In this document: in pieces, positions 90-45,720 of the stretch | Numbering within the stretch: position 1 is the stretch's first letter | Layout: the number at the start of each line of letters is the position of its first letter | Origin: Chiloscyllium plagiosum | Taxonomy: Eukaryota | Length of the DNA: 47,097 nt | Direction of reading: 5' to 3' | NCBI RefSeq assembly: GCF_004010195.1 | Contig: NC_057718.1 | Coordinates: 101,023,637 to 101,070,733, forward strand | Program-made: the position numbers and the translations under genes | Notes under the pieces: generated by a model | What the model was told of the DNA's origin: nothing | Database searches by the model: none | The model's input: only the letters and a program-made list of their open reading frames with translations

Positions 90-925
90 CCATTGGCTTT
101 CTTCCTCTTTTTTTATCTTTTTACTTTTGCTATTTTTCTTTCCTTGTTCTTTCCTTTGTTTTCTTTAATGTTAAGTTGGGAGAGCGATGGCTGAAGGAGG
201 AGGTCCCTGGCAGTAGTGGCAATGATGCCAGGATGAGCCAGACATGGCTCCATCCCAGCCTGGGGTTTCTCGGTGAGTGGGGAGCAGGTCGATGGCTGAC
301 TCCCCCTAGCCGGGACTCACAGGTTAGCCCGAGGCTCCAGGCCGCCTGAAGGAGGAGGAAAGTGGTCTCAGTCGAGTGTGGCTGTCTCCCAGCGACCTGC
401 TGTGCTGTTCCAGCAATAAAGTTTCAGCTTTGATCTCCAGCGTCTGCAGACCTCACTTTCTCCCCCTAACCGGGACTCACATGTTAGCCCGAGGCTCCAG
501 GCCACCTGAAGGAGGAGGAAAGTGGTCTCAGTCGAGTGTGGCTGTCTCCCAGCGTGGTGGTCCACTCTCCACGTGGAGGTCTTCTTTGTCTTCAGTGGCC
601 TGGCAGGTGGGCCGGTCCAGGAGCGGCATTCTCGGCCCGGCATGTTGGTCTCTTCCTGGCTGCATCTTCAGGGTATTCCACTGTTCCTAAATCAGCCTTC
701 CTTGAGCACAGCAGCAATTAGCTGAACTGTGACGAACTTTATCTTAATTTTACTGTTTTAAAGTTATTATGTATAACTTCTGTCATTAATATAGGTGCAA
801 TGGTAGGGCAACTTATAAAACTTTTCATTGTATTATTTGTGTAAAAATACATGAGACAGTAAATTTGTATTCTGTTCTGTTCTATTGTACTGCATTCTAT
901 TCCACTATATTCTATTCTAATCTAT
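90..925 (+). mobile_element. Probable non-LTR retroelement 3' region with a Rex1/Babar-like tail
   Basis: Ends in 'ttttcattgta...tacatgagacagtaaat' followed by (TTCTA/TTCTG)n at ~868-925. The same tail type occurs at 44352-44415. The 5' boundary is uncertain. Confidence 0.4.
300..554 (+). repeat. 95-bp direct duplication (300-394 / 460-554) flanking a 65-bp PLE terminal-repeat fragment (395-459)
   Basis: The copies differ at 3 positions. The insert matches the 3' end and tail of the element at 35242-35444 (gttccagcaataaagtttca.ctttgatctccagc.tctgcagacctcactttc). Confidence 0.9.
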
Positions 926-1597
926 TTTTCTCTACTCTAATGTAGTCTTTGGTCAGTGTAGACAAAGTGGACTGAAGGGCCTCCTGTGCTTTATGATTCT
1001 GTGACTCTACAACCAGGATGGCCTAAGCCAGATTGGTTGGGACTGAGGGTCATTCAGGTTGACTTTGAGCACGGTAACTAGATGCTGGTCCAGCCTGTGA
1101 CTCCCACGTTCCATGTGTGAGTAAAGGAAGCATTACTCTGCCCCTTCACCTCCAATATTCAGGGACATTGAACTGTCCTTTTGACTCCTGAGTCTTACTT
1201 CTCATTCTTCCTTTATAAACACCAACAACATTTATTTGCTTTTCCACTTAAAAGCTGCACTTAATCTCCGGGGTCTGCTTTATAACTGAATTGGAAAATA
1301 AATAACTGAATAACTGGGTTGCTATTATCAGAAGCTTTTTTTTTGTTTTGGTCTGAGATGAATGGAATTTCATTATCATGCTTAATCCTGACCTCTGGCA
1401 CCTCCCCACTTTCCTTTGTTCTGCCATTGGCGGCTGTACCTCCAGCTCCTGTCGTGGCAATCAGCTCTAATTCTCTCCCAACACTTCTCAATACAGCTCA
1501 CCTGCCCAAAATGGTCTTTAACACCCACCTTTTGGAACGAGCTTTCGATCATTAATCTTGAGATTGCCTTATGTTGCTCTGTGACAAATTTTGAGAA

Positions 1598-1892
1598 GCA
1601 GAAGTAGGCCATTTGGCCCATCGAGCCTGCTCTGCCACTCGATGAGGCCGTGGCCGATCTGACAATCCTCAGATCCACTTTTCCCTGTAACCCTTATTCC
1701 CTTCCCCCCTTAAAAATCTGTCGATCTCAGCCTTGAATGTACTTGATGGCAGTTCTCTGCTGTAAAGAATTCCTCAGGTTCACTGCCTTCTGAGAGAAGA
1801 AATCCTATCTCATTGCTGTCTTAAACTGACAACCCCTTTCTCTAAACCTAAGCTGTCTTGTCCTAGAGTCTCCTATGAGGGGGAGCAACATT
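1598..1892 (-). mobile_element. CR1 LINE 3' end fragment
   Basis: The plus strand reads 'agaagtaggccatttggcccatcgagcctgctc', the reverse complement of the CR1 3' UTR/tail also seen at 39080-39130 and 32630-32690. Confidence 0.75.
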
Positions 1893-2096
1893 TTGTATCG
1901 ACCCTATTGTGTGCAGGCCTGGAACTCACATTATAGCAAAGATGTGATTGCACTGGAGAGGGTGCAGAGGAGATTTACCAGGATATTGTCTGGGCTGGAG
2001 GGTTTCAGCGATGGAGAGAGATTGGACAGACTGGGGGTGCTTTCCTTACAACAGAGTACATTGAGAGGGGAGATGATTGAGATGTATAAAATAATG

Positions 2097-2585
2097 GTCA
2101 TGATTTAGAGATGCCGGTTTGGACTGGGGTGTTTAAAGTTAAAAAATCACACAACACCAGGTTATAGTCCAACAGGGTGGCACAGTGGTTAGCACTGCTG
2201 CCTCGCAGCGCCAGAGACCTGGATTTAATTCCCACCTCGGGCAACTGTCTGTGTGGAGTTTGCACATTCTCCCCGTGTCTGCGTAGGTTTCCTCCGGTTG
2301 CTCTGGTTTCCTCCCACAGTCCAAAGATGTGCAGGTTAGGTGAATTGGCCATGCTAAATTGCTCGTAGTATTAGGTGAAGGGATAAATGTAGGGAATGGG
2401 TCTGGGTGAGTTGCTGTTCGGAGGGTCGATGTGGACTTGTTGGGCCAAAGGGCCTGTTTCCACACTGTAAATAATCTAATCTAAAATAGATTTAATTGGA
2501 AGCACTAGCTTTTGGAGCGCTGCTCCACAGCCACCTGATGAAGTAGCAGTTGGACTATAACCTGGTGTTGTGTGATTTTTAACTT
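2097..2585. mobile_element. Palindromic PLE-derived element, hammerhead family B, interrupted by a HE1 SINE
   Basis: Inverted arms 'aaagttaaaaaatcacacaacaccaggttatagtccaac' / 'gttggactataacctggtgttgtgtgatttttaacttt'. CTGATGA at ~2535. TSD tataaaataatg (2085-2096) / tataaaatgatg (2586-2597). Confidence 0.8.
2175..2484 (+). mobile_element. HE1 / V-SINE, full length
   Basis: tRNA-derived head (ggtggcacagtggttagcactgctgcctc, A/B boxes), V-domain 'ggagtttgcacattctccccgtgtctgcgt', CR1-like 3' end and (AATCT)n tail. Confidence 0.9.
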
Positions 2586-2783
2586 TATAAAATGATGTGT
2601 GGCATAAATAGGATAGGTAGGAAGAAATACTTGGTAGAGGGATCAATAGAGCATAAATTTAAGATCAGGAAGTTTCAAGAGGATGTGAAGAGAAACATTT
2701 TCACCCACAATGTGGGGCGAGTCTGTAACTCGCTGTCTGTGAGGGTGGTAAAGGCAGAAATACTCATCATGTTTTCAGAAGTA

Positions 2784-4254
2784 CAGGTAGTTCTGCTATA
2801 ATGTTGTAGTTGCATTTTAGTGAAACCTCGCTTAATGGAAAATCATTAATAGAAATAATGGGGCCTCTGGGAAGAGGCGGGGTTAGGGGCAGGCAAACAA
2901 CAAATATCACTCACGATCGCTCGAATATCACCCCAATGCCTAACACAAAGTATGGCACATCCTGAATGAAGGTTTAAATCATATTTGTTAATGAAACAAA
3001 AGTAAATTTAATACATTACGTGAAAAAATATAGTCAATGTAGGGACAGAGGGTCATCATCATCACCAGCTTCAGGTACAGTTGTGGTTGTAGAAGTGGAT
3101 GGTTGAGATTGATTGTCTTCTGACTGTTTCTTGCAGGTTGGTTTAAAAAAGGCATCCCCTAGTTTTTGCTGCTTTGCCCTTTCTCTTCTGTCTTGAAGAA
3201 GCTGTTCACAGGTTATAAGAGGATATCTTATTGAACAAACTGCTACCTTGCTGTGTTCAGCATTGTAATCGTTGCTCTCCAAGAGCTACAACTGCCTCTC
3301 AACTTTCCTCAGGATAGAAGACAAAAGAAAGAAGTAAGCTCTCTTGGTGCACCATCGTGGACTTCATCTCTTTCATCTCCAGCTTCCTCTTCCCCCTTGA
3401 CTGACAAGCTGTTGTAGATCAGCTATAGTGAGTTCTTCACAGTGAGACTCAAGGAGCTCTTCAATATCCTCACTTTCCACTTCTTCAAAGCCAACCTGCT
3501 TTGCAAGGGCAACACAATGTTCTTTGATTTTTGGGAACTCCTTTGATGGCTCATATCCTTTAAAATTTTTTTTTAAAAAAAGTCCGGGAGAAGCTGCTGC
3601 CAGATTGTATGGAGGCAGTCCTAATTGCCGTCACTGCAGGCCTCCACAATAATGTCAATAGCATTCTTGACGTTAAAACTCATCGAAAATTGAAGAACAC
3701 TGTCCTTATTATTGCCATCAGTCACTGCAATCTTGAACAAGTGCCTTAAATAATAAACTTTAAAAGCTGATATTGCATGGGTCCATGGGTTGAATGAGAA
3801 AGGTTGTGTTTGAAGGTAGAAATAGCCCCTTGATATTTTCAAAAAACTCAGCAATGGTGGAAGGATGGATTGGTGCATTATCCAGGATAAGGAGAGCCTT
3901 GAAACCCAAGTTGTTTTGTCTGCAATACTGTCTAAAAAATCTTCCAAAACACCATCAATGAGGTCAGAAAAAAGTTTGCCCCCTTATCCAAACATTTTTG
4001 CTTGACCTGAAGTAGACGCCTAGAGTAGACTCAAGGTAACCCTTCGAGGCCGGTGGATTGGCGGATTGTGTTGTGCTGTACCTCTCACACGCTCTGATGG
4101 TGCATGCGCAGAATGAAGCATGCGAAACGATTGCCGCTGGAATCACGCTATTGCAAGCAGAGGTGCACGTCCTCAAAAGTACCGTTCCTTAATTCTTCAG
4201 CGACGTTCTAGCCAAATTGTGCTGCCAAAGCATCCTTTATACGTGAACTACCTG
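2784..4254 (-). mobile_element. Tigger/pogo-family DNA transposon, internally deleted, with decayed transposase
   Basis: TIRs caggtagttc...tata / tata...gaactacctg with TA at 2782-83 and 4255-56. Minus-strand remnants KALLILDNAPIHP, QPMD..ISAFKVYYLR and VALAKQVGFEEVESEDIEELLESH are typical of DDE_1/TIGD transposases. Confidence 0.85.
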
Positions 4255-4497
4255 TATTTAGATGTACATTTGTGATGCCGAGACAAACAAGGCCTTGGGC
4301 TCTGTGCTGAAAAATGGGATTAGTATCATTAGGTGGTTGTTTTTGTTGATGAACCTGTTAAACCTCCTGTGTTTCTGATAACCCTTCTGTGGAGCATCTT
4401 GTGTCAGTTTACAATGTTAAAGGTTCTACATAAATGCTATTACAATAATTGCTGGGGCTAATGGACTCCTCCTGCTGAGAAGCCCAATTAAAAACTA

Positions 4498-4682
4498 AAA
4501 GAAAATCTGTGGATGCTGTAAATCAGAAACATAAACAGAAGTTGCTGGAAAAGCTCAGCATCTGTGAAGAGAAATTAGAGTTAACATTTTGGGTTGTGTG
4601 ACCCTTCCTCAGAACTGAAGAACGTTAACTCTGATTTCTCTTCACACCTGCTGAGCTTTTCCAGCAATTTCTGTTTTTGTTG
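4498..4682. mobile_element. Palindromic PLE-derived element, hammerhead family C
   Basis: Inverted arms (gttgctggaaaagctcagc / gctgagcttttccagcaat). Minus-strand gtt-CTGAGGA-agggtcacacaaccc-AAAA-tg-TT-aac is a decayed hammerhead. Confidence 0.7.
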
Positions 4683-4698
4683 CTGAGAAACCCATGTA

Positions 4699-5490
4699 GT
4701 GTCCCAAAGATGTGCAGGTTGGGTGGATTGGCCATGCTGAATTGTCCCATGGTATCCAGGGATGTGCGGGTTGGGCGGATTGGCCATGCTGAATTGTTCC
4801 ATGGTGTCTAGGGATGTGCGGATTGGGCGGATTGGCCATGCTGAATTGTCCTATGGTATCCAGGGATGTGCGGGTTGGGTGGATTGGCCATGCTGAATTG
4901 TTCCATGGTGTCCAGGGATGTGCAGGTTGGGTGGATTGGCCAAGCTGAATTGTCCCTGGTGTCCAGGGATGTTCAGGTTGGGCAGATTGGCCATGCTGAA
5001 TTGTCCCATGGTGTCCAAGGATGTGCAGGTTGGGCAGATTGGCCATGCTGAATTATCCCATGATGTCCAGGGATGTGCAGGTTGGGTGGATTGGCCATGC
5101 TGAATTGTCCCATGGTGTCCAGGGATATGCAGGTTGGGTGGATTGGCCATGCTGAATTATCCTGTGGTGTTCAAGGATGTGCAGGTTGGGCAGATTGGCC
5201 ATGCTGCATTGACCCATGGTGTCCAGGAATATGCAGGTTGGGTGGATTGGCCATGCTGAATTGTCCTGTGTCCAAGGATATGCAGGTTGGGTGGATTGGC
5301 CATGCTGAATTGTCCCATGGTGTCCCAGGAATGTGCAGGTTGGATGGATTGGCCATGCTGAATTGTCCTGTGTCCAAGGATATGCAGGTTGGGTGGATTG
5401 GCCATGCTGAATTGTCCCATGGTGTCCCAGGAATGTGCAGGTTGGATGGATTGGTCATGCTGAATTGTCCCATGGTGTACAAGGATGTGC
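4699..5490 (+). repeat. Minisatellite, ~15 copies of a 52-bp unit derived from the HE1/V-SINE body
   Basis: Unit ggtgtccagggatgtgcaggttgggtggattggccatgctgaattgtcccat matches the SINE segment at 2320-2362. The SINE 3' end follows at 5490-5610. Confidence 0.95.
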
Positions 5491-6319
5491 ATGCTAAGTG
5501 GGTTATTCATGGGAAATGTAGGGTTATGGGGATTGAGTGGCAGTCCTGGGTCTTTGGACGCTTGATGGGCTGAATGGCCTCTTTTTGCACTGTAGGGCTT
5601 CTCTGATATGTTGGGACGCACCACTGGAACGGGTGGGACTTGAACCCAGACCTACTGAACCAGAGAAAGTAACACGACAACTAGAGTCCAAAAAGCCTAG
5701 CTTCCATTTGGTTATCGAAGACGATAGAGTCAACATTCAGGTGATAAAGCAAATCCGCTTCTTTGTCTCTGGGGGAACCTGATGCTGTTAATTTGGGACC
5801 AACTTTGAGTAAACAATGAATGAATGAATGAAAGCTCGCATGATTTGTGTGACTACATAATTGCACAGAAGCCTGGTAAGATAATTAAAGTGACTGGCTG
5901 GTGACTAAAATTCTGGCGGTTGTTGATTAGAGTCACCTTGGTTTTAAGCTTGTTCCAAAATCCCTCTAATCCATCTTGAGACCTCCAATTCAAAGTTGGA
6001 ATTCGAGGCTTGTTAGGCAAATTAATACCCAGGTGACCAAACGGACCTCTGAGAAACAAACAGAAAATGACTCCAGCTGAAACACTAATGAAAATGGTCC
6101 AGTATCTGTTAAAACACACCAACATTTATTTAATTTAATGCATCGTTACTATTACTTTGTGTGTTAAATTAGCAGAGCTTGATTCAGGCTGCTAATTATC
6201 AAAACACTTCAAAGCACAGAGCAGGAGTTGAAAGCTTATTGCTGCTACGTTGGTGCTCAGAGGACCTGTATCACAAGAAACATCATTGTAGTTCAAACGC
6301 CAGTCTCCAGTCTGTTAAC

Positions 6320-6510
6320 TCTCTAGATTAGTTTAGATCACTGGATTCATAATCCAAGATTCTAGGCTCATGTTCTTGGACATGGATTCAAATCACACCA
6401 CTAATAGATGGTGAAATGTGAATTCAATAAAAATTAGAATTAAAAGGCTGGCTATAGGCAACCATTGTTGATTGTCATACAAGCCCATTTAATTCACTCT
6501 AAGGAAGAAA
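6320..6510 (+). mobile_element. Old tRNA-derived SINE fragment (same family as 18290-18600)
   Basis: 'ggattcaaatcacaccac...gatggtgaaatgtgaattcaataaa' mirrors the minus-strand copy at 18480-18540. Confidence 0.5.
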
Positions 6511-6816
6511 TAGGGTGGCACAGGGAGTTGGGTTCGATTCCAGCCTTGGGTGCATTGTTATAGGAGTTGGGATTGGTTAGAACCTTGGTTAGGCCATTTT
6601 CGGAATACTGCATTCAAATCTGATCTCCCTGTTATGGGAAAAATGTTGTTAAACTTGAAAGAGTTCAGAAAAGATTTACAAAGATGTTGCCAGGGTTGAA
6701 GGGTTTGAGCTGCAGGGAGAGGTTTAATATGCTGGGGCTATTTTCCCTGGAGCATCGGAGGCTGAGAGATGACGTTATGGAAGTTTATAAAATCATGAAG
6801 GGCATGGATGGGGTGA

Positions 6817-7023
6817 CTTGGAGGTGCCGATGTTGGACTGGGGTGTACAAAGTTAAAAATCACACTACACCAGGATATAGTCCAACAGGTTTATTTGGAA
6901 GCACTAACTTTTGAATCACAGCTCCTTCATCAGATGGTTGTGGAGCCACCTGATGAAGGAGCAGCGCTCCGAAAGCTAATGCTTCCAAATAAACCTGTTG
7001 GACTATAATCTACTGTTGTGTGA
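6817..7023. mobile_element. Palindromic PLE-derived element, hammerhead family B
   Basis: Inverted arms around ~6935-6945. TSD tggatggggtga (6805-6816) / tagatagggtga (7024-7035). Confidence 0.85.
6947..6981 (+). ncRNA. Minimal type I hammerhead ribozyme motif (PLE type)
   Basis: cac-CTGATGA-a-GGAGC-agc-GCTCC-GAAA-gc-TA-atg. The catalytic core and stem II are intact, and helix III is the palindrome AGCT. Helix I is cac/gtg in the sister copy (rc of 2501-2525) and has one mismatch here. Confidence 0.75.
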
Positions 7024-7484
7024 TAGATAGGGTGAATAGTCAAGATCTTTTTCGCAGGGAAGGGGAGTCCAAAACTAGACGACATATGTTTAAGGTGAGA
7101 GGGAAGGATTTAAAAGGAACCTAAGGGGCAACATTTTCACCCAGAGGGTGGACTGAGCTGCCAAAGGAGGTGGAAGAGGCTGGTTCAATTACAGCATTAA
7201 CAGGCACCTGGATGGGTACATGAATAAGAAGGATTTAGAGGGATATGGGACTAGATCAGTTTAGGATATCTGGTCGGCATGGATGCGTTGGACCAAAGGG
7301 TCTATTTCTGTGCTGTACATCTCGATGATTCTGTGTAGAAAGACCTTGTATGTACAAAATGGAAGGAAGCATAGCTACCAGGGACCTTGTGGCAAAGTGG
7401 TAGTGATTCAAGTCCCACCTGCTCCAAGGGTGTGTGATAGTCTCTCTGACCAGTGTGATTTGAAAATTAATACAAAACACAACT

Positions 7485-10628: not shown

Positions 10629-10657
10629 TGGTTTATGACATAACATTAACTACTGAC

Positions 10658-10820
10658 ATTCTGAAGAAGGGTCACCAGACCTGAAACATTAAGGCTGTTT
10701 CTCTTTCCACAGATGATGCTAGACCTACTGAGTTTCTCCAGCAATTTCTGCTTTTGCTTCAGATTTCCAACATCTCCAACATTTCCAACAAAAAAAAATC
10801 TGCAGTTCTTTGTTTTATTA
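10658..10820 (+). mobile_element. PLE-derived terminal repeat, hammerhead family C
   Basis: att-CTGAAGA-a-GGGTC-acca-GACCT-GAAA-ca-TT-aag, then the body 'gatgctagacctactgagtttctccagcaatttctg' and the tail. Confidence 0.7.
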
Positions 10821-11204: not shown

Positions 11205-11325
11205 TGAAAACAACAAATGCGAGAGATCACAGCGGGTCAGGCAGCATCCATGGAGAGAAAGCAAGTTAAGAGTCATCTAGACTCGAAGCATTAGCTTGCT
11301 CTCTCTCCACAGATGTTGCCTGTGC
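11205..11325. mobile_element. Short palindromic PLE-derived element, decayed
   Basis: Arms caggcagcatccatggagagaaagcaagttaa / ttagcttgctctctctccacagatgttgcctg, with a stem II remnant gagtc-atcta-gactc-gaag. Confidence 0.6.
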
Positions 11326-15263: not shown

Positions 15264-15489
15264 GCTAGATTAGAGTAGTGCTGGAAAAGCACAGCAGTTC
15301 AGGCAGCATCCAAGAAGCAGTAAAATTGACGTTTTGGGCAAAAGCCCTTCAGCAGGAATCCTGATGAAGGGCTTTTGCCCAAAACGTTGATTTTACTGCT
15401 CCTCGGATGCTGCCTGAACTGCTGTGCTTTTCCAGCACCACTCTAATCTAGTCTCTGGTTTCCAGCATCTGCAGTCATTATTTTTACCT
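15264..15489. mobile_element. Palindromic PLE-derived element, hammerhead family A
   Basis: ~92-bp inverted arms (ctagattagagt...cagcagga / tcctgatgaagggcttttgccc...ctctaatctag) plus a ~38-nt tail. TSD agtttacatccccggg (15248-15263) / agttttcatccccggg (15490-15505). Confidence 0.9.
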
Positions 15490-15503
15490 AGTTTTCATCC
15501 CCG

Positions 15504-16020
15504 GGAGAGAGTGAGCACTGCAGATGCTGGAAATCAGAGTCAAAAAGTTGGTGCTGGAAAAATACAGCAGGTCAGGCAGCATCCGAGGAGCACCAGAACC
15601 GATGTTTCGGGTATAAGCTAGGAGGTGTAAGAGGGGAGCTGGGAAGGCGATAGATTGTGGTGGGGGGCTGAAGGTGATGGGTCAGAGGGGAGGGTGGAAC
15701 AGTCAGATGGGAAGGAAGGTGGACAGGTGGGATAGTTCAAGAGGGCGGTGCCCAGTTGGATCTGGGATGAGGTGGCAGAGGGGGAGATCAGCAAACAGGT
15801 GAAATCGATGGCGATGCCATGTGATTGGAGGATCCCAAGGTGGAAGTTGAGGCGTTCTTCCTCCACCTGTCAGGTGACTTGGATTTGACAGTGGAGGAGG
15901 CCCAGGAATTGCATGTCCTTGGCGCAGTGGAAGGGGGATTTGAAGTGATCGGCCATAGGTTGATGGGGTTGTTGGGTGCGTGTCCTCCAAAGATTTTCCT
16001 GAAACGTTCCGCAAGTTGGC
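15504..16020 (-). mobile_element. Penelope-like retroelement 3' end: GIY-YIG endonuclease C-terminal remnant, 3' UTR and family-A terminal repeat
   Basis: Minus-strand FQENLWRTRTQQPHQPMADHFKSPFHCAKDMQFLGLLH and EEERLNFHLGILQSHGIAIDF match the PLE GIY-YIG C-terminus. This is followed by a pyrimidine-rich UTR and a terminal repeat (15504-15617). Confidence 0.8.
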
Positions 16021-17135: not shown

Positions 17136-17280
17136 TTAGAGTGGTGCTGGAAAGCCCTTCATCAACTTTTGCCCGAAACGTCAATTCTCCTGCTGCTTGG
17201 ATGCTGCCTGACCTGTTGTGCTTTTCCAGCACCACTCTAATCTTGGCTCTAATCTCCAGCATCTGCAGTCCTGACTTGTG
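17136..17280. mobile_element. PLE-derived family A element with a short inverted 5' arm
   Basis: Exact 15-bp TSD ctctgtgtgttaaaa (17121-17135 / 17281-17295). Contains 'gcccgaaacgtc', the hammerhead 3' half. Confidence 0.85.
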
Positions 17281-17544
17281 CTCTGTGTGTTAAAAAGTTA
17301 CTTCTGTGTTAAAGTCTATTTAATGCTGGGGAATGCACACAACAGATACAGAAATATGCTGAAATGGCATGTCAGTTTTAAAGATTCTACAGCAGGTGAA
17401 TAATGTATTTTTTTTCAAAGAGTTTTATCTTAAAGAGTGTGTTTCTTCATTGTTGATAAGCAATAGTAATACTGGTTGAAACCGATTTTCAAGATATCCA
17501 CAGCCTTTCTGGCTGATGGAAGTTCAGGATTTTTCAGCTGTACT

Positions 17545-22231: not shown

Positions 22232-22385
22232 ATTTAAAAATCGCACAACACCAGGTTATAGTCCAACAGGTTTATTTGAAAAACTTTCAGAGCACTGCTC
22301 CTTCATCAGGTAGCTAGTGGGGCAGGATCATAGAACACAGAATTTACAGTAAATTATCAAAGCGTCATACAACTGATGTGATGTA
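22232..22385 (-). mobile_element. PLE-derived family B terminal repeat, inserted in a CR1
   Basis: 'aaaaatcgcacaacaccaggttatagtccaacagg'. Minus-strand tac-CTGATGA-a-GGAGC-agt-GCTCT-GAAA. Confidence 0.75.
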
Positions 22386-25892: not shown

Positions 25893-26136
25893 CCGTACAC
25901 TTGTCTCTGGTCCACATCCCTTAATACCTTTTGCTTAACAAAAGTTTATTCACCTCAGGTTTAAAATTGACATGTGACCGCTCGTCAGTTGGTATTTGTA
26001 GAAGAGAGTTCCAAACCTCTACCATCCTTTGTGCATAGCAGTTCTCCCTAATATTTCTCCTGAAGAGTTCAAGAATCCCCAACCAGTATGAATAGTTTAT
26101 CTTCATCTACCATGACTTTATCCTTTAAATTCTTCT

Positions 26137-26240
26137 GTTCTGAAGAAGGGCTACTGGACCCGAAACATTAACTCGGCTTTGTCTGTCCGCAGATGCTGCC
26201 AGAGCTGCTGAGTGTTTCCAGAAATTTCTACTTTGGTCAT
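26137..26240 (+). mobile_element. PLE-derived terminal repeat, hammerhead family C
   Basis: gtt-CTGAAGA-agggctactggaccc-GAAA-ca-TT-aac, with helix I gtt/aac. Confidence 0.7.
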
Positions 26241-26929
26241 AAAAAGAAACAGCTTGTCTGGCCACTCCCATGTTGTGGGAGTTTGTAAAATTGCCTGCTG
26301 TGTTTCCCCTTTGTAGCAGTGACTTGCAAGCATCCCATTAGCTGCACAGCACTTTGAGACGTCGGGTGGTTGTGAAAATGTCATAGTAATGACAGTCGTT
26401 TTTTGAGAATTGTACGATTCTGGGTTCTACAAAACATGACAAGCAGAGTCTTTTAAAAACAAATCAGCAACTTCAGCCTGCATAATGTTGAGTTGGTTTC
26501 TTAGAGCCTGTGGGGACTTCTGGCAGAGAAAGTTGCTTACTGCTGGAAATATTTGATATTCAAGGTTATCTTCAATGTGCTATCTTTTTTCTTTGGATTC
26601 TGGCTTTTAATGGGGTTCTTTAAATATCATGCACATGTTCATGTGTTTGGAGAATTTAGGGAGGGTTTTAGAATCACTGTGATTTTGCTGTTAATACCAT
26701 AAATAGTTTAATAAAATATTGCAAAACACCAGGATAATCAGCAGATGAATGGTGCTACTAATGAGAAAGGAACTGAAATTAAGAAGCACTTCAAGTCAAA
26801 ATATTTGTAGCTCTTTTCTCCCAAGATATGTTGGCAGCTTTTATTTTATACAATTGCTTTTTGATGACTTTCTTCATCCGAATTTGCCACGTCTCCTGTG
26901 AAAATCGCTTCCTGTGTTAATAAGAAGCC

Positions 26930-27860: not shown

Positions 27861-27943
27861 TAGATTAGAGTGGTGCTGGAAAAGCACAGCAGTTCAGGCA
27901 GCATCCTCAAAATCAACATTTTGGGCAAAAGCCCTTCATCAGG
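27861..27943 (-). mobile_element. Solo tail-less PLE family A arm
   Basis: Exact TSD acattaggatt (27850-27860 / 27944-27954). Ends at the reverse complement of CTGATGA. Confidence 0.8.
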
Positions 27944-28084
27944 ACATTAGGATTGCTTGGTTATCACCGTGCACGGGTTCATCAGCTATTGTAATAATGC
28001 TGTAAATCTACCTACAGAGCACTGCTATTTGCCATAGAGTGCGTGCAATAAAGGTTCACCCTTACTAATTCTGAGGATGGAAGA

Positions 28085-29869: not shown

Positions 29870-29960
29870 AGGAGAAAGTGAGGACTGCAGATGCTGGAGA
29901 TCAGAGTTGAGAGTATGGTGCTGGGAAAGCACAGCAGGTCAGGCAGCATCTAGGGAGAAC
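29870..29960 (-). mobile_element. PLE family A terminal-repeat fragment with tail
   Basis: ggagaaagtgaggactgcagatgctggagatcagag...gcacagcaggtcaggcagcatc. Confidence 0.75.
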
Positions 29961-30361
29961 AGTCCCAACTAATGTCATTTAGGGAAGGAAACCTACCATC
30001 CTTATCCGGTCTGGCTTCCACATGACTCCAATTTGGTTGACTATTAGTTGCCCTCTGAAATGGCTGAGGAAGCCACACAGTTCAATAGGACTTAGGGACA
30101 GATGTAGCGCATGCATCCCACGAAAGAATGGAGATGAAACACCTCTTTCCCAATCACACCAATTGAAGACTCAATTAACTGTGGCTGCAGGCATAGGAAA
30201 CATTGGGCAGTAGCATAAGGGTACGACCCAATCCAAGGCGTCCTAAGGTATAGTAGTGGTGTCCCTACCTCTGGGCTAGAAGGTCCACAGAGATGGAGGG
30301 TTCAAGTCCTACCCTCAGACAGAGAGGGTTCAGAAAAGATTTACCAGGATGTTGCTGGGTA

Positions 30362-32766: not shown

Positions 32767-32975
32767 AGAGTCAAGAATATGGTGCTGGAAAAGCACAGCA
32801 AGTCAGGCAGCATCCGAGAAGCAGGAAAATAGACATTTTGGGCAAAAGCCCTTCATCAGTCATGAGTTCATTCCTGATGAAGGGCTTTTGCCCGAAACAT
32901 TGGTTTTCCTGCTCCTCGGATGCAGCACCACACTCTTGACTCTAATCCCCAATATCTGCAGTCCTCACTTTCACC
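32767..32975. mobile_element. Palindromic PLE-derived element, hammerhead family A
   Basis: Exact TSD tgagtggaacagt (32754-66 / 32976-88). ttc-CTGATGA-a-GGGC-tttt-GCCC-GAAA-ca-TT at ~32871-32901. Confidence 0.85.
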
Positions 32976-34012: not shown

Positions 34013-34102
34013 TATTCTGTGTGTGTGTGTGTGAGTGAGAGAGAGAGAGATAGGAAGGTAAGGGTGGATGGAATGGACCTTAATGATCACTTGAAGACTA
34101 TT

Positions 34103-34340
34103 ACAAACACAGGGCATGCTGAAGAAATTCAGCAGGTCAGGCATCATCTGTGGAGGGAGAAACAGTTAACTTTTTGCATCTAATATGACTCTTGTTCAGA
34201 ACTGTTCTAAACAAACAAACCTACCGTGCTACAGAGTTCTGAGAAAGAGTCAGACTGGTTTGGAAACAGCCAGGCCTGCTGGGTTTCTCCAGTGTTCTCT
34301 GTGCTTATTTCAGATTTCCAGCATCTGTGTATTTGCCTTT
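34103..34340. mobile_element. Older palindromic PLE-derived element (family C-like)
   Basis: TSD acttgaagactatt (34089-34102) / acttgaggactatt (34341-34354). Two opposed decayed gttCTGA..AagagtC motifs. Confidence 0.7.
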
Positions 34341-34443: not shown

Positions 34444-34538
34444 TGGTCAAAAAGTGTGTTGCTGGAAAAGCACAGCAGGTCAGGCAGTATCCGAGGAGCA
34501 GGAGAGTCGACGTTTCAGGCATAAGCTCTTCATCAGGA
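34444..34538 (-). mobile_element. Solo tail-less PLE family A arm with hammerhead
   Basis: Exact TSD attattagaaacct (34430-43 / 34539-52). Minus-strand ttc-CTGATGA-a-gagc-ttat-gcct-GAAA-cg-TC-gac. Confidence 0.85.
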
Positions 34539-35241
34539 ATTATTAGAAACCTGTCTCATGCTCAAGAATTCTGTGACATCTCAAAGTCTGTTTCTGCCAG
34601 TTTCTGCAGAATGAGAGTGTCAGACTGTTAGGAATTTGAAGAAAAGGGTTGATATTTGTAAAAATGCCAATATAATTGATTTAAAATAAACCCCAGCATG
34701 TTAAAAAATAATGCTGAATTGTTGGCTTTTGTTCTGAAAAACTGTAAATTGCAAATTATATCAAAGCATTTCATGCGTTTAGTCTTCAAATGGCCCATAA
34801 TAGTTCACATTTTATATATTGGTATCTCATCTGACTTTTCACCAATCCAAGTGAGACAGTTTAATGTTAAATGTTATTTAACTAACATCTAGTGTACCAG
34901 GATTGCCGTTATGAATCTGAACGGTCTCAATTGGCATCATTCCGCTAATTCCAATTGATTTGCAAGTCATTGAGTTTCTGTGTTAAGTTCCCCACATTTT
35001 GCACATATGCTTCCTCACTGGGGTTCTGCTTATACAAGAACATGGTTTTTAAGGAGCGGAAATGATTGTGTTTCCATAATCTTGGAGTATTTTATATTTT
35101 GCATACTTATCTGCAGGTGAACCCTGCACAGTACAAAATGCCAGATGATTACATACCTCTGTACCAATGGTGTTTAGAAGATTAATGCTGATTGATGCCA
35201 GTTGGGATTAAAGGAGGGGATATTGGTACACCAGACATTCT

Positions 35242-35444
35242 TGAAACTTTATTGCTGGAACAGCACAGCAGGTCAGGCAGCATCCAGGGAACAGGAGATT
35301 CGACGTTTCGGGCACAGGCCCTTCTAAGGGCCTGTGCCCGAAACGTCGAATCTCCTGTTCCCTGGATGCTGCCTGACCTGCTGTGCTGTTCCAGCAATAA
35401 AGTTTCAACTTTGATCTCCAGCATCTGCAGACCTCACTTTCTCC
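35242..35444. mobile_element. Young, perfectly palindromic PLE-derived element (family A variant)
   Basis: 82-bp arms (35242-35323 / 35326-35407) with a 2-nt spacer, a 37-nt tail, and an exact TSD acaccagacattct (35228-41 / 35445-58). Confidence 0.92.
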
Positions 35445-36444: not shown

Positions 36445-36507
36445 GACATGCACACTGCCTATGACATAAAGCAGTAGTCACATAGGGTAAAGTAGGGAGG
36501 ACATTTC

Positions 36508-36810
36508 TGGGAGAAAGTGAGGACTCCAGATGCTGGAGACCAGAGTTGAGAGAGTGGTTCTGGAAAAGCACAGCAGGTCAGGCAGCATCCGAGGAGCAGG
36601 AAAAATCAACGTTTCAGGCAAAAGCCCTTCATTAGGAATGGGAATGAGGGGATGAGTGATTGTGGGTGAATGGGGGTAGGTGAGGAGGATTGCAAACATT
36701 GGAAGGACGATTGGCAGAGAAGGACAAGGAAATGCTGAAGGAAAGGGGAAGGCAGGATTGGGTGCTGGCTGATTTGAGAGGTCTTCGAAAGAGTTTTGCA
36801 TCTTGGACTT
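36508..36810 (-). mobile_element. PLE family A terminal repeat with adjoining putative 3' UTR
   Basis: Tail, body and decayed hammerhead at 36508-36640, then purine-rich (plus-strand) sequence arranged like 15620-15790. Confidence 0.7.
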
Positions 36811-37500: not shown

Positions 37501-37509
37501 TGATTAGAG

Positions 37510-37660
37510 ACAAAAATAAACTACAGATGCTGGAATCCAAGGTAGACAAACAGGAGGCTGGAAGAACACAGCAAGCAAGGCAGCATCAGGAGGTGGAGAA
37601 GTCAACGTTTCGCGTATTCACCCTTCCTCAGGACTAGATGTGGGGACAGGGGGAGCTTAA
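37510..37660 (-). mobile_element. PLE-derived terminal repeat, hammerhead family D
   Basis: Tail 'aaaataaactacagatgctggaatc' and body 'gctggaagaacacagcaagcaaggcagcatc'. Confidence 0.7.
37601..37634 (-). ncRNA. Minimal hammerhead ribozyme motif
   Basis: gtc-CTGAGGA-a-GGGT-gaat-ACGC-GAAA-cg-TT-gac. Helix I gtc/gac, palindromic helix III ACGT, one stem II mismatch. Confidence 0.65.
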
Positions 37661-38384: not shown

Positions 38385-38858
38385 ATAGAGTCACAGAGAT
38401 GTACAGAGCAGAAACAGACCTTTTGATCCAACTGGTCCATGCGGACCAGATATCCTAAACTAATCTAGTCCCATTTGCCAGCTTTTTGCCCCTATCCCTC
38501 TGAACGCTTCCCATTCATGGACCCATCCAGATGCCTGTTAAATGTTGTAATTGTACCAGCCTCCACCACTTCCTCTGGCAGCTCATTCCACACACACACC
38601 ACCGTCTGCTTGAAAACGTTGCCTCCTAGGTACCTTTTAAATCTTTCCCTCGCACCCTAAACCTATGGTTTTTAGATTTGGACTCTCCTACTCTGGGGAA
38701 AAGACCTTGCCTATCCACCTCATGTCCCTCTTGATTTTATAAACCTGTATACGTCACCCCTCAGCCTCCGACGCTTCAGGGAAACCAGCCCCTGCCTATT
38801 CAGCCTCTCCCTATTGCTGATATGCTCCAACCTTGGCAAATTCCTTGTAAATCTTCCT
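38385..38858 (-). mobile_element. CR1 LINE 3' fragment
   Basis: Reverse complement of the CR1 C-terminus and tail. Confidence 0.88.
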
Positions 38859-39065
38859 TGCTTACTTTTTAGTTGCTGACATATAGAATCTGAACCTGAT
38901 TTGAAGTTAGAAGGATGAGTGTAGATGAAAAATCATCTATTTAGAATAGAAAGTGCAGCTTAAACTGGGAAGGTGTCATCTGTGAAAGACAATAAAAAGG
39001 TCAAATAATGGATAATTGAGGATGAAACTAAGGCACAAAATAATTTTGTATTTTCAAAGGATGCC

Positions 39066-40032
39066 AATAGACAATAGACAATAGGTGCAGGATTAAGCCA
39101 TTCTGCCCTTCGAGCCTGCACCACCATTCATTATGATCATGGCTGATCATCCTCAATCAGTATCCTGTTCCTGCCTTATCTCCATAACCCTTGATTCCAC
39201 TATCCTTGAGAGTTCTATCCAACTCTTGCTTAAATGAATCCAGAGACTTGGCCTCCACTGCCTTCTGGGGCAGAGCATTCCACACAGCCACCACTCTCTG
39301 GGTGAAGAGGTTTCTCCTCATCTCTGTTCTAAATGGCCTACCCCTTATTTTTAAGCTGTGTCCTCTGGTTCGGGACTCACCCATCAGCAGAAACATGTTT
39401 CCTGCCTCCAGAGTGTCCAATCCTTTAATAATCTTATATATCTCAATCAGATCCCCTCTCAGTCTTCTAAACTCAAGGGTATACAAGCCCAGGCTCCAAT
39501 CTTTCAACATAAGATAGTCCTGCCATTCCAGGAATTGACCTCGTGATCCTACGCTACACTCCCTCAATAGCCAGAACGTCTTTCCTCAAAATTGGAGACC
39601 AGAACTGCACACAGTACTCCAGGTGCAGTCTCACCAGGGCTCTGTACAGCTGCAGAAGAACCTCTTTGCTTCTTTACTTGGATCCCTCTTGTTATGAAGG
39701 CCAGCATGCTATTAGCTTTCTTCACTACCTGCTGTATCTGCATGCTTGCCTTCATTGACTGGTGTACAAGAACACCCAGATCTCTCTGTACTGCCCCTTT
39801 ACCTAACTTGACTCCATTTAGGTAGTAATCTGCCTTCCTGCTCTTGCCACCAAAGTGGATAGCCATACATTTATCCACATTAAACTGCATCTGCCATGCA
39901 CCTGTCCACTCACCTAACTTGTCCAGGTCACCCTGTAATCTCCTAACATCCTCCTCACATTTCACCCTGCCACCCAGCTTTGTATCATCAGCAAATTTGC
40001 TAATGTTACTGTTAATACCATCTTCTATATCA
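39066..40032 (-). mobile_element. CR1 LINE 3' ~1 kb (end of RT domain)
   Basis: DIEDGINSNISKFADDTKLGGRV...LQGDLDKL...QMQFNVDKC; EFRRLRGDLIEIYKII; (caataga)n tail. Confidence 0.95.
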
Positions 40033-40438
40033 TGCAGTGCTCTTGAACACTGCATTTTTGATTTTCAGGAGATATCATTTGGTCTTCAGAGTCTCCTTTC
40101 TCATTCTTACTATCTTCTCCAGTGGCTGATGCAGCTACAAGTTGATGAGTAGGGTTTTGAACTCTTACAAAAGGAGAATTAGAAGAATTTATCTATATCT
40201 GCTAAATGTAAAGCCACAACACACAGAGGCACCACAGTATTTTAATTGGTGCAGGATGACGAGTAAATTTGCAAAATTTATTTCAATATAGCTAACTCCT
40301 ACAAAAAGCCATCATCCGAAAAACAGCTCCTGTAGTCTGGTGAGATCACAGACATACATATTCAGAAAGCTAGAATATTTTATTCAGTTAGTACCCTTTC
40401 CAATGCATCTCGGATGTCGATCTCTGATATTAAATTTA

Positions 40439-41540
40439 ACAATTGACACAACGTTAACTACAATAGCACCCCACTACAAATTGAGTACTTCCTGAATGTA
40501 TGCAGCCTTAAATTAGAACTACCACACTCATCTGCTGATCACTTATTGCCTCAGTAATTTCAAGACTTCCAAGCTAGTTACCTGAGTGTTCCTTTGTTGG
40601 CCTGTTTGAAACTGTTCTCACTCCTTTGTAACCTTTTTTCTCTCCGTACTCCCTTATGGCCAGTCTTTGTCTCTCTCCCACCTCCTTCGTTAAAACCTCT
40701 CTCCCATCCACTTCGCTTAAGCCCTCCCTCTCTCCCACTCTCTCACTGTCTTTGCGATCTCCCTGTTTCTCCCACCGTTCTGGTTGAGGGTTCCCCATCT
40801 CCCATTTTCTGTCATCTCTCTAGCGGCTCCCTGTCTCCCCTCAGCCACGTTCTCTCCCCAGCAGTCTCCTTACCACTTACACTCTTTGCCCCCTCACCCA
40901 TGGAAAGCAAAACCTCTGCTCCCTGCCACAGTTTGACCTCGCAGCCTCAGCACAGGGGAACAGGTAAAGGTTTGCATTAATTTCCCCACCTCCCTCTTCA
41001 TCCCACCCAATCCCAGATCCATCTTTCCCCTTCTGGACCTCAGAGCCAGACTGTAGAAGCAGTTTCCAGACCTTGACTTTCCAGACCCTAGGTCTTGCAC
41101 CCCCTCTCTCCCACGGTGCCCCCCCTCCCTCTATTTACCTGGTGACTCCCTCACTCCTGGCACTTACCCACCTGCTCCAATCACAGCGTGTTCATATTGC
41201 TTGCCTGTTGATTGGCTCACCAGTAATCATCTCCCTAGCAACCGCAGGAGAGAGCCAGTGATTAGAGCGAGCATCTCCTTAGCATTTCTTTGTGTTCAAC
41301 CCGCGGGATCAACTTTCCTCCCATTGGATGTCCCCAGTGGTATATATTTCCAGAGTGCTTTGGGGAGGAATGCAGTGCCATGTGGAACACTCAGGTAACT
41401 AGCAGCTTGGAAGTCTTGAAATTACTGAGGCAATGAGTGATCAGCAGATGAGTGTGGTAGTTCTAATTTAAGGCTACATACATTCAGGAAGTACTCAATT
41501 TGTAGGGGGGTGCTATTGTAGTGAAAGCTGTGTCAATTGT
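40439..41540. mobile_element. Non-autonomous DNA-transposon-like element with ~155-bp inverted termini
   Basis: 40439-40592 is the reverse complement of 41384-41540 at roughly 90% identity by eye. TA flanks both ends (40437-38, 41541-42). Confidence 0.75.
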
Positions 41541-42284
41541 TATTGGGTGGCGCTCTGTTCAATTAACATTTTGGGAAAAATGTGAAGCTTGTTGGATTTT
41601 CTTCCAGGGGACAGTGAAATTCACAGTGCATACAGATTGTACAAGCAGTTGTGTTGATGAGCCGAATGGTTCTCCTGGGTCCCTTTATTTCAAAGCGCAT
41701 CTCTACCACCATTTCCTCAGAATCTGTTGTTTCCTTTCTATCAGTTTCCTTCCTGCCGAGCCACAGCTTTCAGACAGCATTACCCTGTGGCCTTGACTCC
41801 GCACTGACTACATCGCTCTGATTTTCTTTCTCCCTCCATGCCTTGACAGTGAGCTGAGGAACTTACAGCAGAAAGCTCTGTGACATCTCTTTCCTTGATT
41901 CTTGCTGGCATTTAGAGTCCAGAGTGGATTTTGAAATCTGCCAAAAACATTTTTAAATCATCAATTATTAAAAGTCACATGGCATGGCCGATTATAATAC
42001 CGTTTTGTCGTGGTATTGAGGGTGTCATACTTTGTCTATCGGCTCGATATCTCCCTGCATAGGAACACAGCAGAAGTAGACTGTTCAGCCCTCAAGCCTG
42101 CTTGCCATTCTATATCATGGCTGCTTCTCTACCTCAGTGTCATATTTCCCATGTCCCTCAATGACTGTTGCGTTGATAGGACATACAAAGAGGAGTAAGT
42201 GCAAAGGTGATTCACCTCAAATGAAACTAGGACTGTGAACTTCAACTTTCAGAAAGGATCAAAGCTCTTTTTTTCTTGAAAGAA

Positions 42285-42685
42285 GATTGTGAGGAGTGAC
42301 CTGATAGGTGACCTTATAGAGGTTTATAAAATCAGGAGAGGTATAGTTAAGGTGAATGGCAGGTGCCTTTTCCCTAGGATGGGAGATTTCAGACTAGAGG
42401 ACATATTTTTAAGGTAAGAGGAGAGAGATTTAAAAAGACGTGGCATCAATTTTTTTTCAGAGTTGGTGGAATTGAATTCCATTTGTGAAGTGAACTTGCT
42501 GAGGAAGTGGTGGATGTGGGTACAATTACAACATTTAACAGAACTTGGATAAGGACATATTTAAGAAACGTTTGGAGGGATATGGGCCATGACCAGCCAG
42601 GTGGCACGAGTTCAGTTTGGGATTATGTTCGGCATGGACTGATTGAACCAAAAGATCTGTTTCTGTGCTGCATGACTCTATGACT
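42285..42685 (+). mobile_element. CR1 LINE 3' fragment
   Basis: GDLIEVYKIRRG.. and the 'catgactctatgact' tail. Confidence 0.8.
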
Positions 42686-44214
42686 GTATTATATGAAAGT
42701 GTTTGGTAGGGTAGTCTTGTTCTATTTGTCAAAGAGACCAGACAAATAGGCTGTAAAGATAAACGAATCCAGTCAGAAATTCAGGAGAAATATTTTTACC
42801 CAGAGAGTGACCAGAACGTGCAAACCCGAGTCAATCATTCGGCCCATCGAGTCTGTTCCTGTATTCAATGAGATCATGACTGATCTCATAAACCTCAACT
42901 CCATTTTCCTGACTTTTTTCCTATTACCCTTGATTCACTTATAGATTAAAAATCTGTCTCAACCTTAAATATGCTTAAAGAATTGCACAGCCTCACTATC
43001 CTCCTGGGTAGTTGGAGAAGGAGTAGTTGAGGAAAGTACATATGTATTTAAGAGGCATTTAGATCATAATGTGGATGGGAAAATGTAATGGGATGATATG
43101 TTGACAGGATTAGATGAAAAGAGATGAGAGAAGGTTCGTGCAAAAAATAAGCATTGGATTGGGCAAATGGCCTCATCATTTTTGTAAACACTTTGTGACT
43201 TTAAGACTTGGAGTAGACCTCATTTCTTGCAGAAACATGTTGGTAATCCCAAGCAATTCCCTTCAATTTGTACAAAGAGCAGTATGATTGATTCCACACT
43301 CAATTCCATATTGACCTTTCCATCTACACTTGGGCTACAGCACTAAAGGGGTGGCAGGGACCTTATTATCCTACTCAGCCCCTTCTCAGTTCCCTGTTCT
43401 TTTGCAATTAGTTACCAACGTTACTTTCTATCACCTGAGCAGAGTCCATCCCCATCTCTCTTTCCATTCCGCTGCCAAAAACACTTAATTGCACATTGCA
43501 GCATCTTCCAAAGTGGCCCACAGCCAGTGTCTCTTTTTGAACTGTAATCTTTAATATTCACTTGGGAATAGCACACAGCAACCAAAGACAAGATTCTCAT
43601 ACCCACCGTCAGGTTCGCTAGTGCTCTCACCCTTCTGCTTTTTCTCTGATCTTAGACCTGTGTTGTGCAGACTGTCCTGTTCTCAAAGGCTGCCGCACTG
43701 TTTTCCAAACTCTCTATTCTGCCATCAACAACTACAAAGGGGCCACACCCCTGCCCAGTACTGTTTCCCATCGCAGATCCTCTGTAAGGTTTTTGTGTTC
43801 TGCCACCTTTCTGTATGTCGTGAATGGAGTAGAAATGTATGTTCTTCTTTTGGACATTAGCTGTGGTTAACTACAAGCCATCGTGTCAAAACAGATAATT
43901 GTCCACAGTGATTTCTCTTTCAATGATAATTGGATGAATGGCCTTAGGAACATATTCTGCACCACACAATGGGCGGGCAAGGAAATAGGTCCAAAGCCTA
44001 TCTCAGCTGGAGTAGGAATTGCCATCCCACTGTCAGTGTTATTCTGAATCATACACTAGCCATTTAACCAATTTTGTAACCAGGCCCTCATTATGATACA
44101 GGTTATGTAGCAAAAATGCAAACTTTTATATAAAGCTGTGGTTGATGATATTTCGATTTTAAACAGCTATGAAATAAAATGCTTATTAGTTTAGAGCTGA
44201 CATTTAAACAGGCC

Positions 44215-44350
44215 ATTGAGGTCTGTTTTCAGGATAGGGGAGTCCAATACTAGAGGATATAGGTTTAAGATGAGAGGGCAAAGATTTAAAAGAGACCTAA
44301 GGGGCAACTTTTTCATGCAGAGTGTGGTACGTGTATGGAACGAACTGGCA
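44215..44350 (+). mobile_element. CR1 fragment, followed by a Rex1/Babar-like tail (44352-44415)
   Basis: GESNTRGYRFKMRGQRFKRDLRGNFFMQSVVRVWNEL, then 'tacatgtgacaataaagctaattctaattcta'. Confidence 0.7.
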
Positions 44351-45574
44351 ACTTTTGTAAACTGTTTACTGTACTCATGTGAGTACATGTGACAATAAAG
44401 CTAATTCTAATTCTAAAATAGCAGCTGTTCACCACACTGTGGATGAGGAGGGCAACTTTCTTTGGATCTTCCTCAGCTGTGCCACCAGATGTGTTTCTCA
44501 GCAAAATTTTTACGGCCGAGGATTTTAGCTACGAGGTTGTTCAGAGAAGATGGAATTCCTCTCCCTGGATCAAAGGAGATTAAGGGTCGAATCTGTTGAG
44601 GTTTGTAAAAAAAAAAGACAGAGTTTGATAAGGTGGACAAGAAGCTAATGGCAGAATGACTAATTTAAGGTTTGGATAGAAAAGCTAGGGGTGTGTGAGG
44701 AAGAATCTTCATATGCAGCAAGAGGTCTTTATGCAGCAATACAGTCTTTCTTCACTGCCTGTGAAGGTGGTGGAGGGGAGAGACAATGAGTTCAAAAATA
44801 AATTGTATTATATAGTCATATATTTGTATTATATGGCTGTTATACTTGTATTATAAATTAAGGTACATGAGGGAAATGAGGGATACAGAGTTTAGAACAA
44901 AGGAATGGGACAGACTGGATTGCTCTTAAGAGAGGCAGCATGGACTGAATGGGCCAAATGGCCTCCTGCCAAGCTAAAAGAAGTCTTGAGCGGCACCCTA
45001 ATGAGCAGTGTGCGAGAAAGTAATGACATTTACATTCTCATTGAAGAGGAGGAACATGGGCTTTGACGGTTTAATAATGTCAGTTGTCTTGCTTGCACTT
45101 TGTTACATTTGATGAGAGCGGAGGGTGAGGAATGGATTGTCGAGATTATTGCATGTTTCAGTGAAATGAGATAATCACGTGTTGAGTTTCTGCAGCAGCG
45201 CTCTCTCTTTCTAGCAAAATTAAAACTTCTTCAGTAAAACCAGATATACAGTCAAAACTGGTAACCCATATAGCAAACTCTTGAATGAAGCTGTTCACAT
45301 ATTCAGTGTGACAGAAAAGCAGAATTCCAACTTTGGCTCACGCTTCACAACCCAGAGAACGCGTGATTACGGTCCCACTATTTTACAAAGGTGAGGAGCA
45401 ACAACTGTATTTCCCTCGAGTCCTCCATTTGCATCGGCTCAGTGTCCAATGGGGTGATTCCTGTCGTAATCTATTTACATATTACACAATACTTCGAGAG
45501 ATAGGCATGGTGTGTACAGGCTGGATGTTTCCACTGGTTGGAGAATTGAGAGCAGTTTGGAAATAAGGGAGATA

Positions 45575-45720
45575 AAATAAAACGCTGAACTTCGGATGCT
45601 GAAGATCTGAAACATGAACTGAAATTGCTGGAGAAACCCAGCAGGTCTGGCAGCATCTGTGGAAAGAGAGCAGAGTTAACTTTTCAGGTCCAGTGACCCT
45701 TCATTAGAACTGTTTCTGTT
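45575..45720 (-). mobile_element. PLE family C terminal repeat between CR1 fragments
   Basis: Minus-strand gtt-CTAATGA-a-GGGTC-actg-GACCT-GAAA-ag-TT-aac. Confidence 0.7.

Follow-up and report, generated by a model that had tools for sequence, protein, structure and literature searches.

Cervera and De la Pena (2014; PMC4209133) reported minimal hammerhead ribozymes from the terminal repeats of metazoan Penelope-like elements (PLEs). The sections of that paper used here report motifs of type I topology with a short helix I, in which the boxes CUGANGA and GAAA are present, one base between A9 and position 10.1 is unpaired, G10.1 pairs with C11.1 and 15.2-16.2 is palindromic. They also report several consensus families per genome that covary between families, a core variant with U3-A8, and a predominance of motifs that stand alone in truncated PLEs, next to some that are paired across opposite strands. 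We found the same features in short repeats of Chiloscyllium plagiosum, in a window of 47,097 nt (the whole stretch of DNA analysed; contig NC_057718.1, C9:101023637-101070733, in an assembly of 3.56 Gb). The repeats are new families of a known biology, the minimal hammerheads of metazoan PLEs, which is already in print. They differ from the published examples, as given in those sections, in helix II, which has 4–7 bp here versus 7–8 bp in the Schistosoma families, and in number, as exact copies here exceed the published totals of about 4,000 in the coelacanth and about 9,000 in Xenopus. The searched parts of the main text of that paper and two of its supplement files mention no shark, and a literature search on shark, Penelope and hammerhead found no paper on the topic.

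The endonuclease-bearing PLEs offer a second comparison. In the portions of Craig (2021; PMC8557442) considered here, these elements are heavily truncated at the 5' end, lie next to an inverted copy that is itself 5'-truncated, and have a tail of 30–40 bp at only one end of the insertion; all of these traits have counterparts in C. plagiosum. The copies described below also have two alternative 3' ends, as expected from the two reverse transcription start sites of Frangieh (2024; PMC11167929), and their hammerhead lies roughly 55–100 nt upstream of the 3' ends, as in the architecture that emerges from the relevant parts of both papers. Unlike the published endonuclease-bearing PLEs, the insertion units found here mostly have only 90–150 nt per arm.

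The repeats of the window are very probably short, mutated retrotransposed copies of the 3'-terminal module of PLEs, likely made by the elements' own enzymes, that is, their reverse transcriptase and GIY-YIG endonuclease. This module consists of a minimal type I hammerhead motif and a tail of 55–100 nt. How PLEs start and finish reverse transcription is still poorly understood, and the repeats could be of use here as a large natural sample of insertion ends: the sharp 5' start at helix I, the two 3' ends and the combination of a long with a short end in inverted pairs constrain both steps.

Hammerhead motifs in the window and its flanks

Searches were made in the window alone and in a 247-kb set that comprises the window and 200 kb of flanks chosen regardless of the motif. 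The simple pattern CTGANGA..GAAA has 15 matches in the window versus 3.07 expected, a number attained in none of 100 shuffles. A strict descriptor, which requires the core, a single unpaired base, a perfect stem II and GAAA, gave 4 matches in the window, while 200 shuffles had 0.05 on average and never more than 1. Over 247 kb it gave 39 matches. A covariance model built from the strict matches (R1) and run on the window with filters off returned 15 full-length matches at E<1e-3, two partial matches at 35302-35325 (-) and 35318-35353 (+), and a weaker match at 2529-2577 (+) with an E value of 0.016; four of the window matches are seeds of R1 itself. There are thus 18 hammerhead-derived segments in the window at E<=0.016, spread across 14 loci, which bears out the at least 17 copies of the original prediction, an earlier reading of this DNA. 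With tail-only pieces included, the insertion units number about 21. In the 247-kb set R1 had 79 matches at E<=0.01 (one per 3.1 kb), 38 of which were model seeds.

Inspection of the sequence showed that all 12 sites named in the original prediction contain the described motif, with some amendments to individual entries. The site at 2501-25 on the reverse strand, given as a family B motif, has in fact its 3' half only, and the pair at 35326, given as family A, has no CUGANGA box. The family D copy (37601-34, reverse strand) does carry the motif, with one mismatch in helix II. The predicted range began at 395, where there is a tail fragment without a hammerhead (395-463). Beyond the sites listed at that time we found copies at 36602-36641 (-) and 27909-27948 (-), inverted partners at 32826-32865 (-), 15322-15361 (-) and 6899-6939 (-), and an F-like family at two places (Table 1).

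Structure and families of the motif

Base pairing was analysed in an alignment of 38 strict matches (A1), in which helix I occupies columns 3-6/41-44, helix II columns 15-19/28-32 and the palindrome of helix III columns 36-39. In this alignment 84.8% of the cells are paired, compared with 63.5% in shuffles, none of 500 of which equalled the observed value, and with 22–43% in slid controls. The predicted minimal type I hammerhead, in which helices I and II covary and helix III is a palindrome, is supported by these values, which exceed those of all shuffles and slid controls. Helix I, which lies outside the descriptor, is 70% paired, all four of its pairs vary on both sides, and pair counts over the 79 R1 matches agree with those of A1. 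Because the changes fall between families, the independent covariation events are few, about 6–7.

Helix III is a 4-nt palindrome and A9 is followed by an unpaired base (column 14 of A1), which is A in at least 90% of the rows and T in both rows of family E. The G10.1-C11.1 pair (columns 15-32) is GC in 26 rows, GU in 8 and AU in 1, and the 15.2-16.2 pair of the palindrome (columns 37-38) is CG in 12 and GC in 9, the remainder being mostly CpG-decay forms. The core nucleotides C3 U4 G5 A6 N7 G8 A9, G12 A13 A14 and H17 are present in the family forms.

The 247-kb set contains six families and, in addition, a variant of the core with U3-A8. The strands of helix I and helix II are, respectively, UC/GA and GGGC/GCCC in family A, CAC/GUG and GGAGC/GCUCC in family B (with AGCU as helix III), AGUU/AACU and GGGUC/GACCC in family C, AGUC/GACU and GGGU/ACCC in family D, UCCA/UGGA and GUUACC/GGUAAC in family E, and AGCU/AGCU and GAGUC/GACUC in family F. 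Family E, which has no copy in the window, was seen at L035:2824-2869 and L036:2688-2733, with a stem II of 6–7 bp and an unpaired T after A9. The U3-A8 variant constitutes a seventh family, observed at L038:3011-3118 and at L120-L131 (window flank and contig C1), with the core UUGACAA (U3-A8 replacing C3-G8), helix I AGCU/AGCU and stem II GGGUC/GACUC. An exact 20-mer of this family has 2,537 genomic copies, whereas its backbone carries C3-G8 in 1 copy and single changes in 59. Thus, the core covariation between U3-A8 and C3-G8 lies between families and not inside one.

Derivation from Penelope-like elements

The original prediction derived all of the families from Penelope elements. For family A this is confirmed by a colinear upstream open reading frame (ORF): in genomic copies the motif is preceded by a non-coding stretch of about 150 nt, and this in turn by the end of an ORF (...LIFHLGTLQPQGINVDF). 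A frame of 392 residues, P0001, matches the Pfam GIY-YIG domain (23.1 bits versus a cut-off of 22.6). Its longer relatives number 67 at E<=1e-10; RVT_1 is present in most of them and, in some, GIY-YIG as well. In tblastn searches, remnants from the reverse transcriptase to the endonuclease part were found upstream of hammerheads at several loci, in the window only at 15765-16004 (P0001 residues 313-392, 55% identity, E 3.8e-20). In PAc the ORF begins in the motif, whereas in the family A copies examined it lies upstream and the ATG of the hammerhead opens a frame of only 17 codons. PLEs have terminal direct repeats (pLTRs) that come from partial tandems and each carry a hammerhead; in the stretches covered of the four long-ORF loci L116-L119, no unit with two such repeats was encountered.

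Families C, D and F have the same tail motif as family A; no long copy of families C and D was found in 247 kb. Family B has a tail of its own and an AT-rich upstream region, and shares with family A the short and long ends and the head-to-head pairs. The evidence on its derivation is partial, with PLE ORF remnants upstream of the hammerhead in two of the eight loci viewed, one of them without the GIY-YIG part, and to judge from these sequences family B is likely to come from a PLE as well. At the family B locus L052:1658-2700, the ORF remnant ends just before the GIY-YIG part and is followed by ~350 nt of AT-rich sequence and then by the hammerhead; this locus is either a deletion derivative or has a distinct 3' region.

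3' ends, head-to-head pairs and target duplications

A brute-force scan of the 247-kb set gave 92 tail motifs, 17 of them in the window. Forty of the 92 form 20 close head-to-head pairs and the other 52 are unpaired; the opposite (+,-) orientation was seen in only 2 pairs. Copies end in one of two ways, either short or long, the latter with an extra tail of about 35–45 nt. One long and one short tail are combined in 17 of the 20 pairs, while 3 pairs have two short tails and none has two long ones; single copies are long-tailed in 21 of 52 cases (P = 7.5e-4). Singles and pairs are flanked by target duplications of 10–16 bp. In 16 of the 20 pairs the tail motifs are spaced by 76–110 nt, which places the arm starts at the core box. 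The junction positions vary, and some lie inside the motif.

The mechanism described by Frangieh (2024; PMC11167929) would accommodate these ends. The RNA would offer two internal sites at either of which reverse transcription could begin, yielding the short and the long ends, and priming on both strands of one target would yield the inverted pairs. A symmetric snap-back origin fits some of the pairs (arms of 34–41 nt, spacers of 2–16 nt), whereas L031 and L038:5808 are clearly asymmetric.

Hairpin units with target duplications could also be taken for small DNA transposons of the miniature inverted-repeat (MITE) type. Near-perfect palindromes with flanking duplications of 13–16 bp do occur, such as L025:1904-2090 and the unit at 35241-35444 of the window. 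However, each arm is a copy of a retroelement 3' end, single copies of this sequence are just as common (the 52 unpaired tails), the two ends of a unit differ by the one-long-one-short rule and the junction positions vary, so that a DNA transposon is hardly credible here.

The unit at L025:1904-2090 is a 187-nt palindrome, a mini-pair of the A2 subfamily whose arms are 99.5% identical, with one long and one short end and a 16-bp flanking duplication, CTCTTCTATGATCAGT. It is unrelated to the truncated copy that lies downstream of it.

5' ends of the copies

Starts of family A copies were measured in 65 copies (69 with the exact 30-mer of the core, minus 1 reference and minus 3 cut by runs of N). 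Of these, 27 begin 0–10 nt before CUGAUGA, mostly at -3 to -8, and the later 10-nt bins hold 3–5 copies each; the other 38 begin more than 10 nt upstream, the whole spread being from 0 to >247 nt, and these extents, taken against one reference copy, may be too short for diverged subfamilies. Starts are much tighter elsewhere: all 14 copies of families C and D in 247 kb begin at helix I (-3 to -5), and all 12 viewed copies of the U3-A8 family begin exactly at AGCT (-4). Breaks at -4, at the short end and at the long end also recur in the contigs of two other runs, X1 and X5, and in raw RNA reads from X21. The phrase of the original prediction, 'mini-elements or extreme 5' truncations', is apt in both of its halves, as both kinds occur. 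A copy start exactly at the predicted cut was not clear in any of the 20 pairs, and no large-scale test of this was made.

As the mini-copies share a fixed start, they may have arisen by run-off of the reverse transcriptase on a template RNA whose 5' end is fixed at helix I. On the strength of these aligned starts, we put at about even the chances that many of the mini-copies are run-off products of this kind. The competing view is that ordinary 5' truncation produced them and that the RNA has no defined end, the reverse transcriptase tending to stop once past a folded or protein-bound module of hammerhead and tail. This would agree with the wide spread of family A starts, with pair junctions that fall within the motif as well, with the lack of a cap signature (no consistent extra G is seen at the starts of mini-copies) and with the place at which protein binds the RNA, immediately downstream of the hammerhead (Frangieh, 2024; PMC11167929). 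On the other hand, the stop is very sharp in families C, D and U3-A8, and none of these families has a longer copy in 247 kb. We regard ordinary truncation as possible and as the less probable of the two.

A more far-reaching version of the run-off model is tentative: the start of the copies, at the first base of helix I, would mark the RNA 5' end and, at the same time, the one-long-one-short rule would record integration into two strands by a dimeric particle. If so, the hammerhead would be located at the extreme 5' end of the RNA and its palindromic helix III could join two templates.

Genome-wide abundance and RNA reads

The 30-mer of the family A core has 15,996 exact copies in the genome (7,961 + 8,035) and a 32-place pattern of family B has 11,894 (5,984 + 5,910); reversed-sequence controls for both patterns had 0 matches in the genome. 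With about one hammerhead-derived segment per 3 kb in the 247-kb set, the repeats make up a visible share of the unclassified short repeats of this genome, and the numbers of exact cores show fairly recent activity of several families. No RNA data set was listed for the probe sequence, L006:1300-1650. In X21, a raw polyA single-cell RNA run, 921 reads were found, 96% of which extend into unrelated flanking sequence; the reads occur in both orientations, and the pattern looks like read-through of embedded copies.

Such abundance and discrete unit boundaries would also be expected of independent non-autonomous elements of the retrozyme type or of the short interspersed (SINE) type, which would be transcribed on their own, cut by their hammerhead, circularized and copied. 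The non-LTR (long terminal repeat) retrozymes, to go by the available parts of their descriptions (Cervera and De la Pena, 2020, PMC7229834; Li et al., 2026), resemble the repeats studied here as short non-coding type I hammerhead repeats related to PLE terminal repeats, and the accessible part of a recent report places them in one chondrichthyan species, again in connection with PLE terminal repeats (10.64898/2026.07.22.740005). They differ, according to the same parts, in forming tandem arrays that give rise to circular RNAs. Among the 26 pairs of adjacent R1 matches within 1 kb of each other in the 247-kb set, 17 are head-to-head, 7 are on the same strand and belong to different families, and 2 have the (+,-) orientation; none is part of a head-to-tail tandem array of one family. 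As no tandem arrays were found, the repeats are not read as retrozymes. The copies also show no permutation at the cut site, a PLE 3' untranslated region (UTR) and ORF are colinear with the units of family A, and RNA reads continue into the flanks, all of which makes independent elements of either type very unlikely.

Decay of the hammerhead

Cleavage after H17 is predicted for the hammerhead of active elements, but only when two copies form a dimer through the palindrome ACGU or AGCU. In the window, CUGANGA is kept in 12 and GAAA in 10 of the 16 aligned copies, and the complete motif is retained in none. The window copies are therefore fossils, in which the hammerhead is an inert passenger. 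The original prediction that most copies carry core mutations was correct and understated the decay, given that none of the 16 has every feature of the motif.

This loss is one of several points that weigh against reading the repeats as copies of the PLE 3'-terminal module, together with the single reference behind the family A extents, the missing cap signature and the sparse ORF remnants of family B discussed above. Over 247 kb the complete motif is retained in only 18 of the 79 R1 matches. Activity of such motifs in vitro is low, according to the sections of PMC4209133 used here. Read ends in X21 show no pile-up at the predicted cut, a weak test since this type of library is ill-suited to 5'-OH ends. 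Finally, Rfam has no hammerhead family in the window, either at the gathering threshold or at E<=10; its 14 matches at E<=10 are weak and microRNA-like, on the long inverted repeats at 15.3, 32.8 and 35.3 kb. This miss is to be expected, because the motifs share the catalytic core boxes with Hammerhead_1 and its relatives but are devoid of the helix III hairpin, which the Rfam hammerhead models require, and of the loop-loop contacts.

Features of the window

The units identified in the window are listed in Table 1.

Table 1. Hammerhead-derived and tail-only insertion units in the 47,097-nt window.
Position	Strand	Unit	Remarks
395..463	+	A2 subfamily, tail-only fragment, no hammerhead	5'-truncated within tail motif; long tail; tail same as 35365-35444
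2098..2176 (approximate)	-	Family B, tail-only fragment	Long end; B tail motif, 0 mismatches, at 2176
2492..2586	both	Family B, head-to-head pair	Left arm: stem II, GAAA, AGCT; right arm: CTGATGA, then internal deletion
4487..4681	both	Family C, head-to-head pair	Minus arm: hammerhead 4577-4618, long tail; plus arm: truncated within motif, short end; bracketed by GCTGAGAA[G/A]CCCA at 4474-4486 and 4682-4694
6817..7025	both	Family B, head-to-head pair	Hammerheads 6899-6939 (-) and 6944-6984 (+); minus arm long tail, plus arm short end
10655..10812 (3' bound approximate)	+	Family C, single	Begins at helix I; ACGT decayed to ACAT
11212..11325 (approximate)	both	F-like, head-to-head pair	Junction within hammerhead; tail motif at 11248 (-)
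15265..15488	both	Family A, head-to-head pair	Hammerheads 15322-15361 (-) and 15355-15394 (+); minus arm short, plus arm long tail; bracketed by AGTTT[A/T]CATCCCCGGG
15504..16004	-	A-type, older and longer copy	GIY-YIG C-terminal ORF remnant 15765-16004, 3' UTR, hammerhead without 5' half, long tail; tail motif at 15583 (-)
17136..17281	both	A-type, complex head-to-head unit	Deletions, broken hammerhead; bracketed by CTCTGTGTGTTAAAA
22233..22318 (5' bound = minimum)	-	Family B, single	Hammerhead 22275-22315, deletion after GAAAG, short end; family sequence extends upstream of this bound by at least 40 nt
26136..26243	+	Family C, single	Hammerhead 26134-26175, short end
27861..27945	-	Family A, single	Hammerhead 27909-27948, internal deletion, short end; bracketed by ACATTAGGATT
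29871..29966	-	A-type, tail-only fragment	Long tail
32767..32975	both	Family A, head-to-head pair	Hammerheads 32826-32865 (-) and 32868-32907 (+); minus arm short, plus arm long; bracketed by TGAGTGGAACAGT
34100..34205 (approximate)	-	C/F-like, decayed single	Tail motif at 34148, 1 mismatch
34446..34541	-	Family A, single	Begins 4 nt before CTGATGA, short end; bracketed by ATTATTAGAAACCT
35241..35444	both	A2, head-to-head pair	Junction in CUGANGA box; minus arm short, plus arm long; bracketed by ACACCAGACATTC
36510..36710 (5' bound approximate)	-	Family A, longer copy	Hammerhead 36602-36641, upstream 3' UTR, long tail
37505..37640 (3' bound approximate)	-	Family D, single	Hammerhead 37598-37637, begins at helix I, long tail
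45583..45716	-	Family C, single	Hammerhead 45672-45713 (core CTAATGA), begins at helix I, long tail

The young-looking family A pair at 15265-15488 is inserted at the 3' end of the older copy at 15504-16004, a placement in keeping with reports that PLEs tend to insert into or next to earlier copies. A 24-nt string, GTCGAGTGTGGCTGTCTCCCAGCG, occurs at 371-394 and again at 533-556, bracketing the 395-463 fragment and about 70 nt of other sequence; this duplication exceeds the usual length of the target duplications.

A Pfam search of the 78 ORFs of the window yielded only weak matches to RVT_1 and to DUF7397. The RVT_1 match (E 6.6e-4, below the cut-off) comes from an open frame at 39567-40064 (-), to which tblastn with P0001, P0003 and P0035 gave no match; this frame is probably a fragment of an element of the long interspersed (LINE) type.

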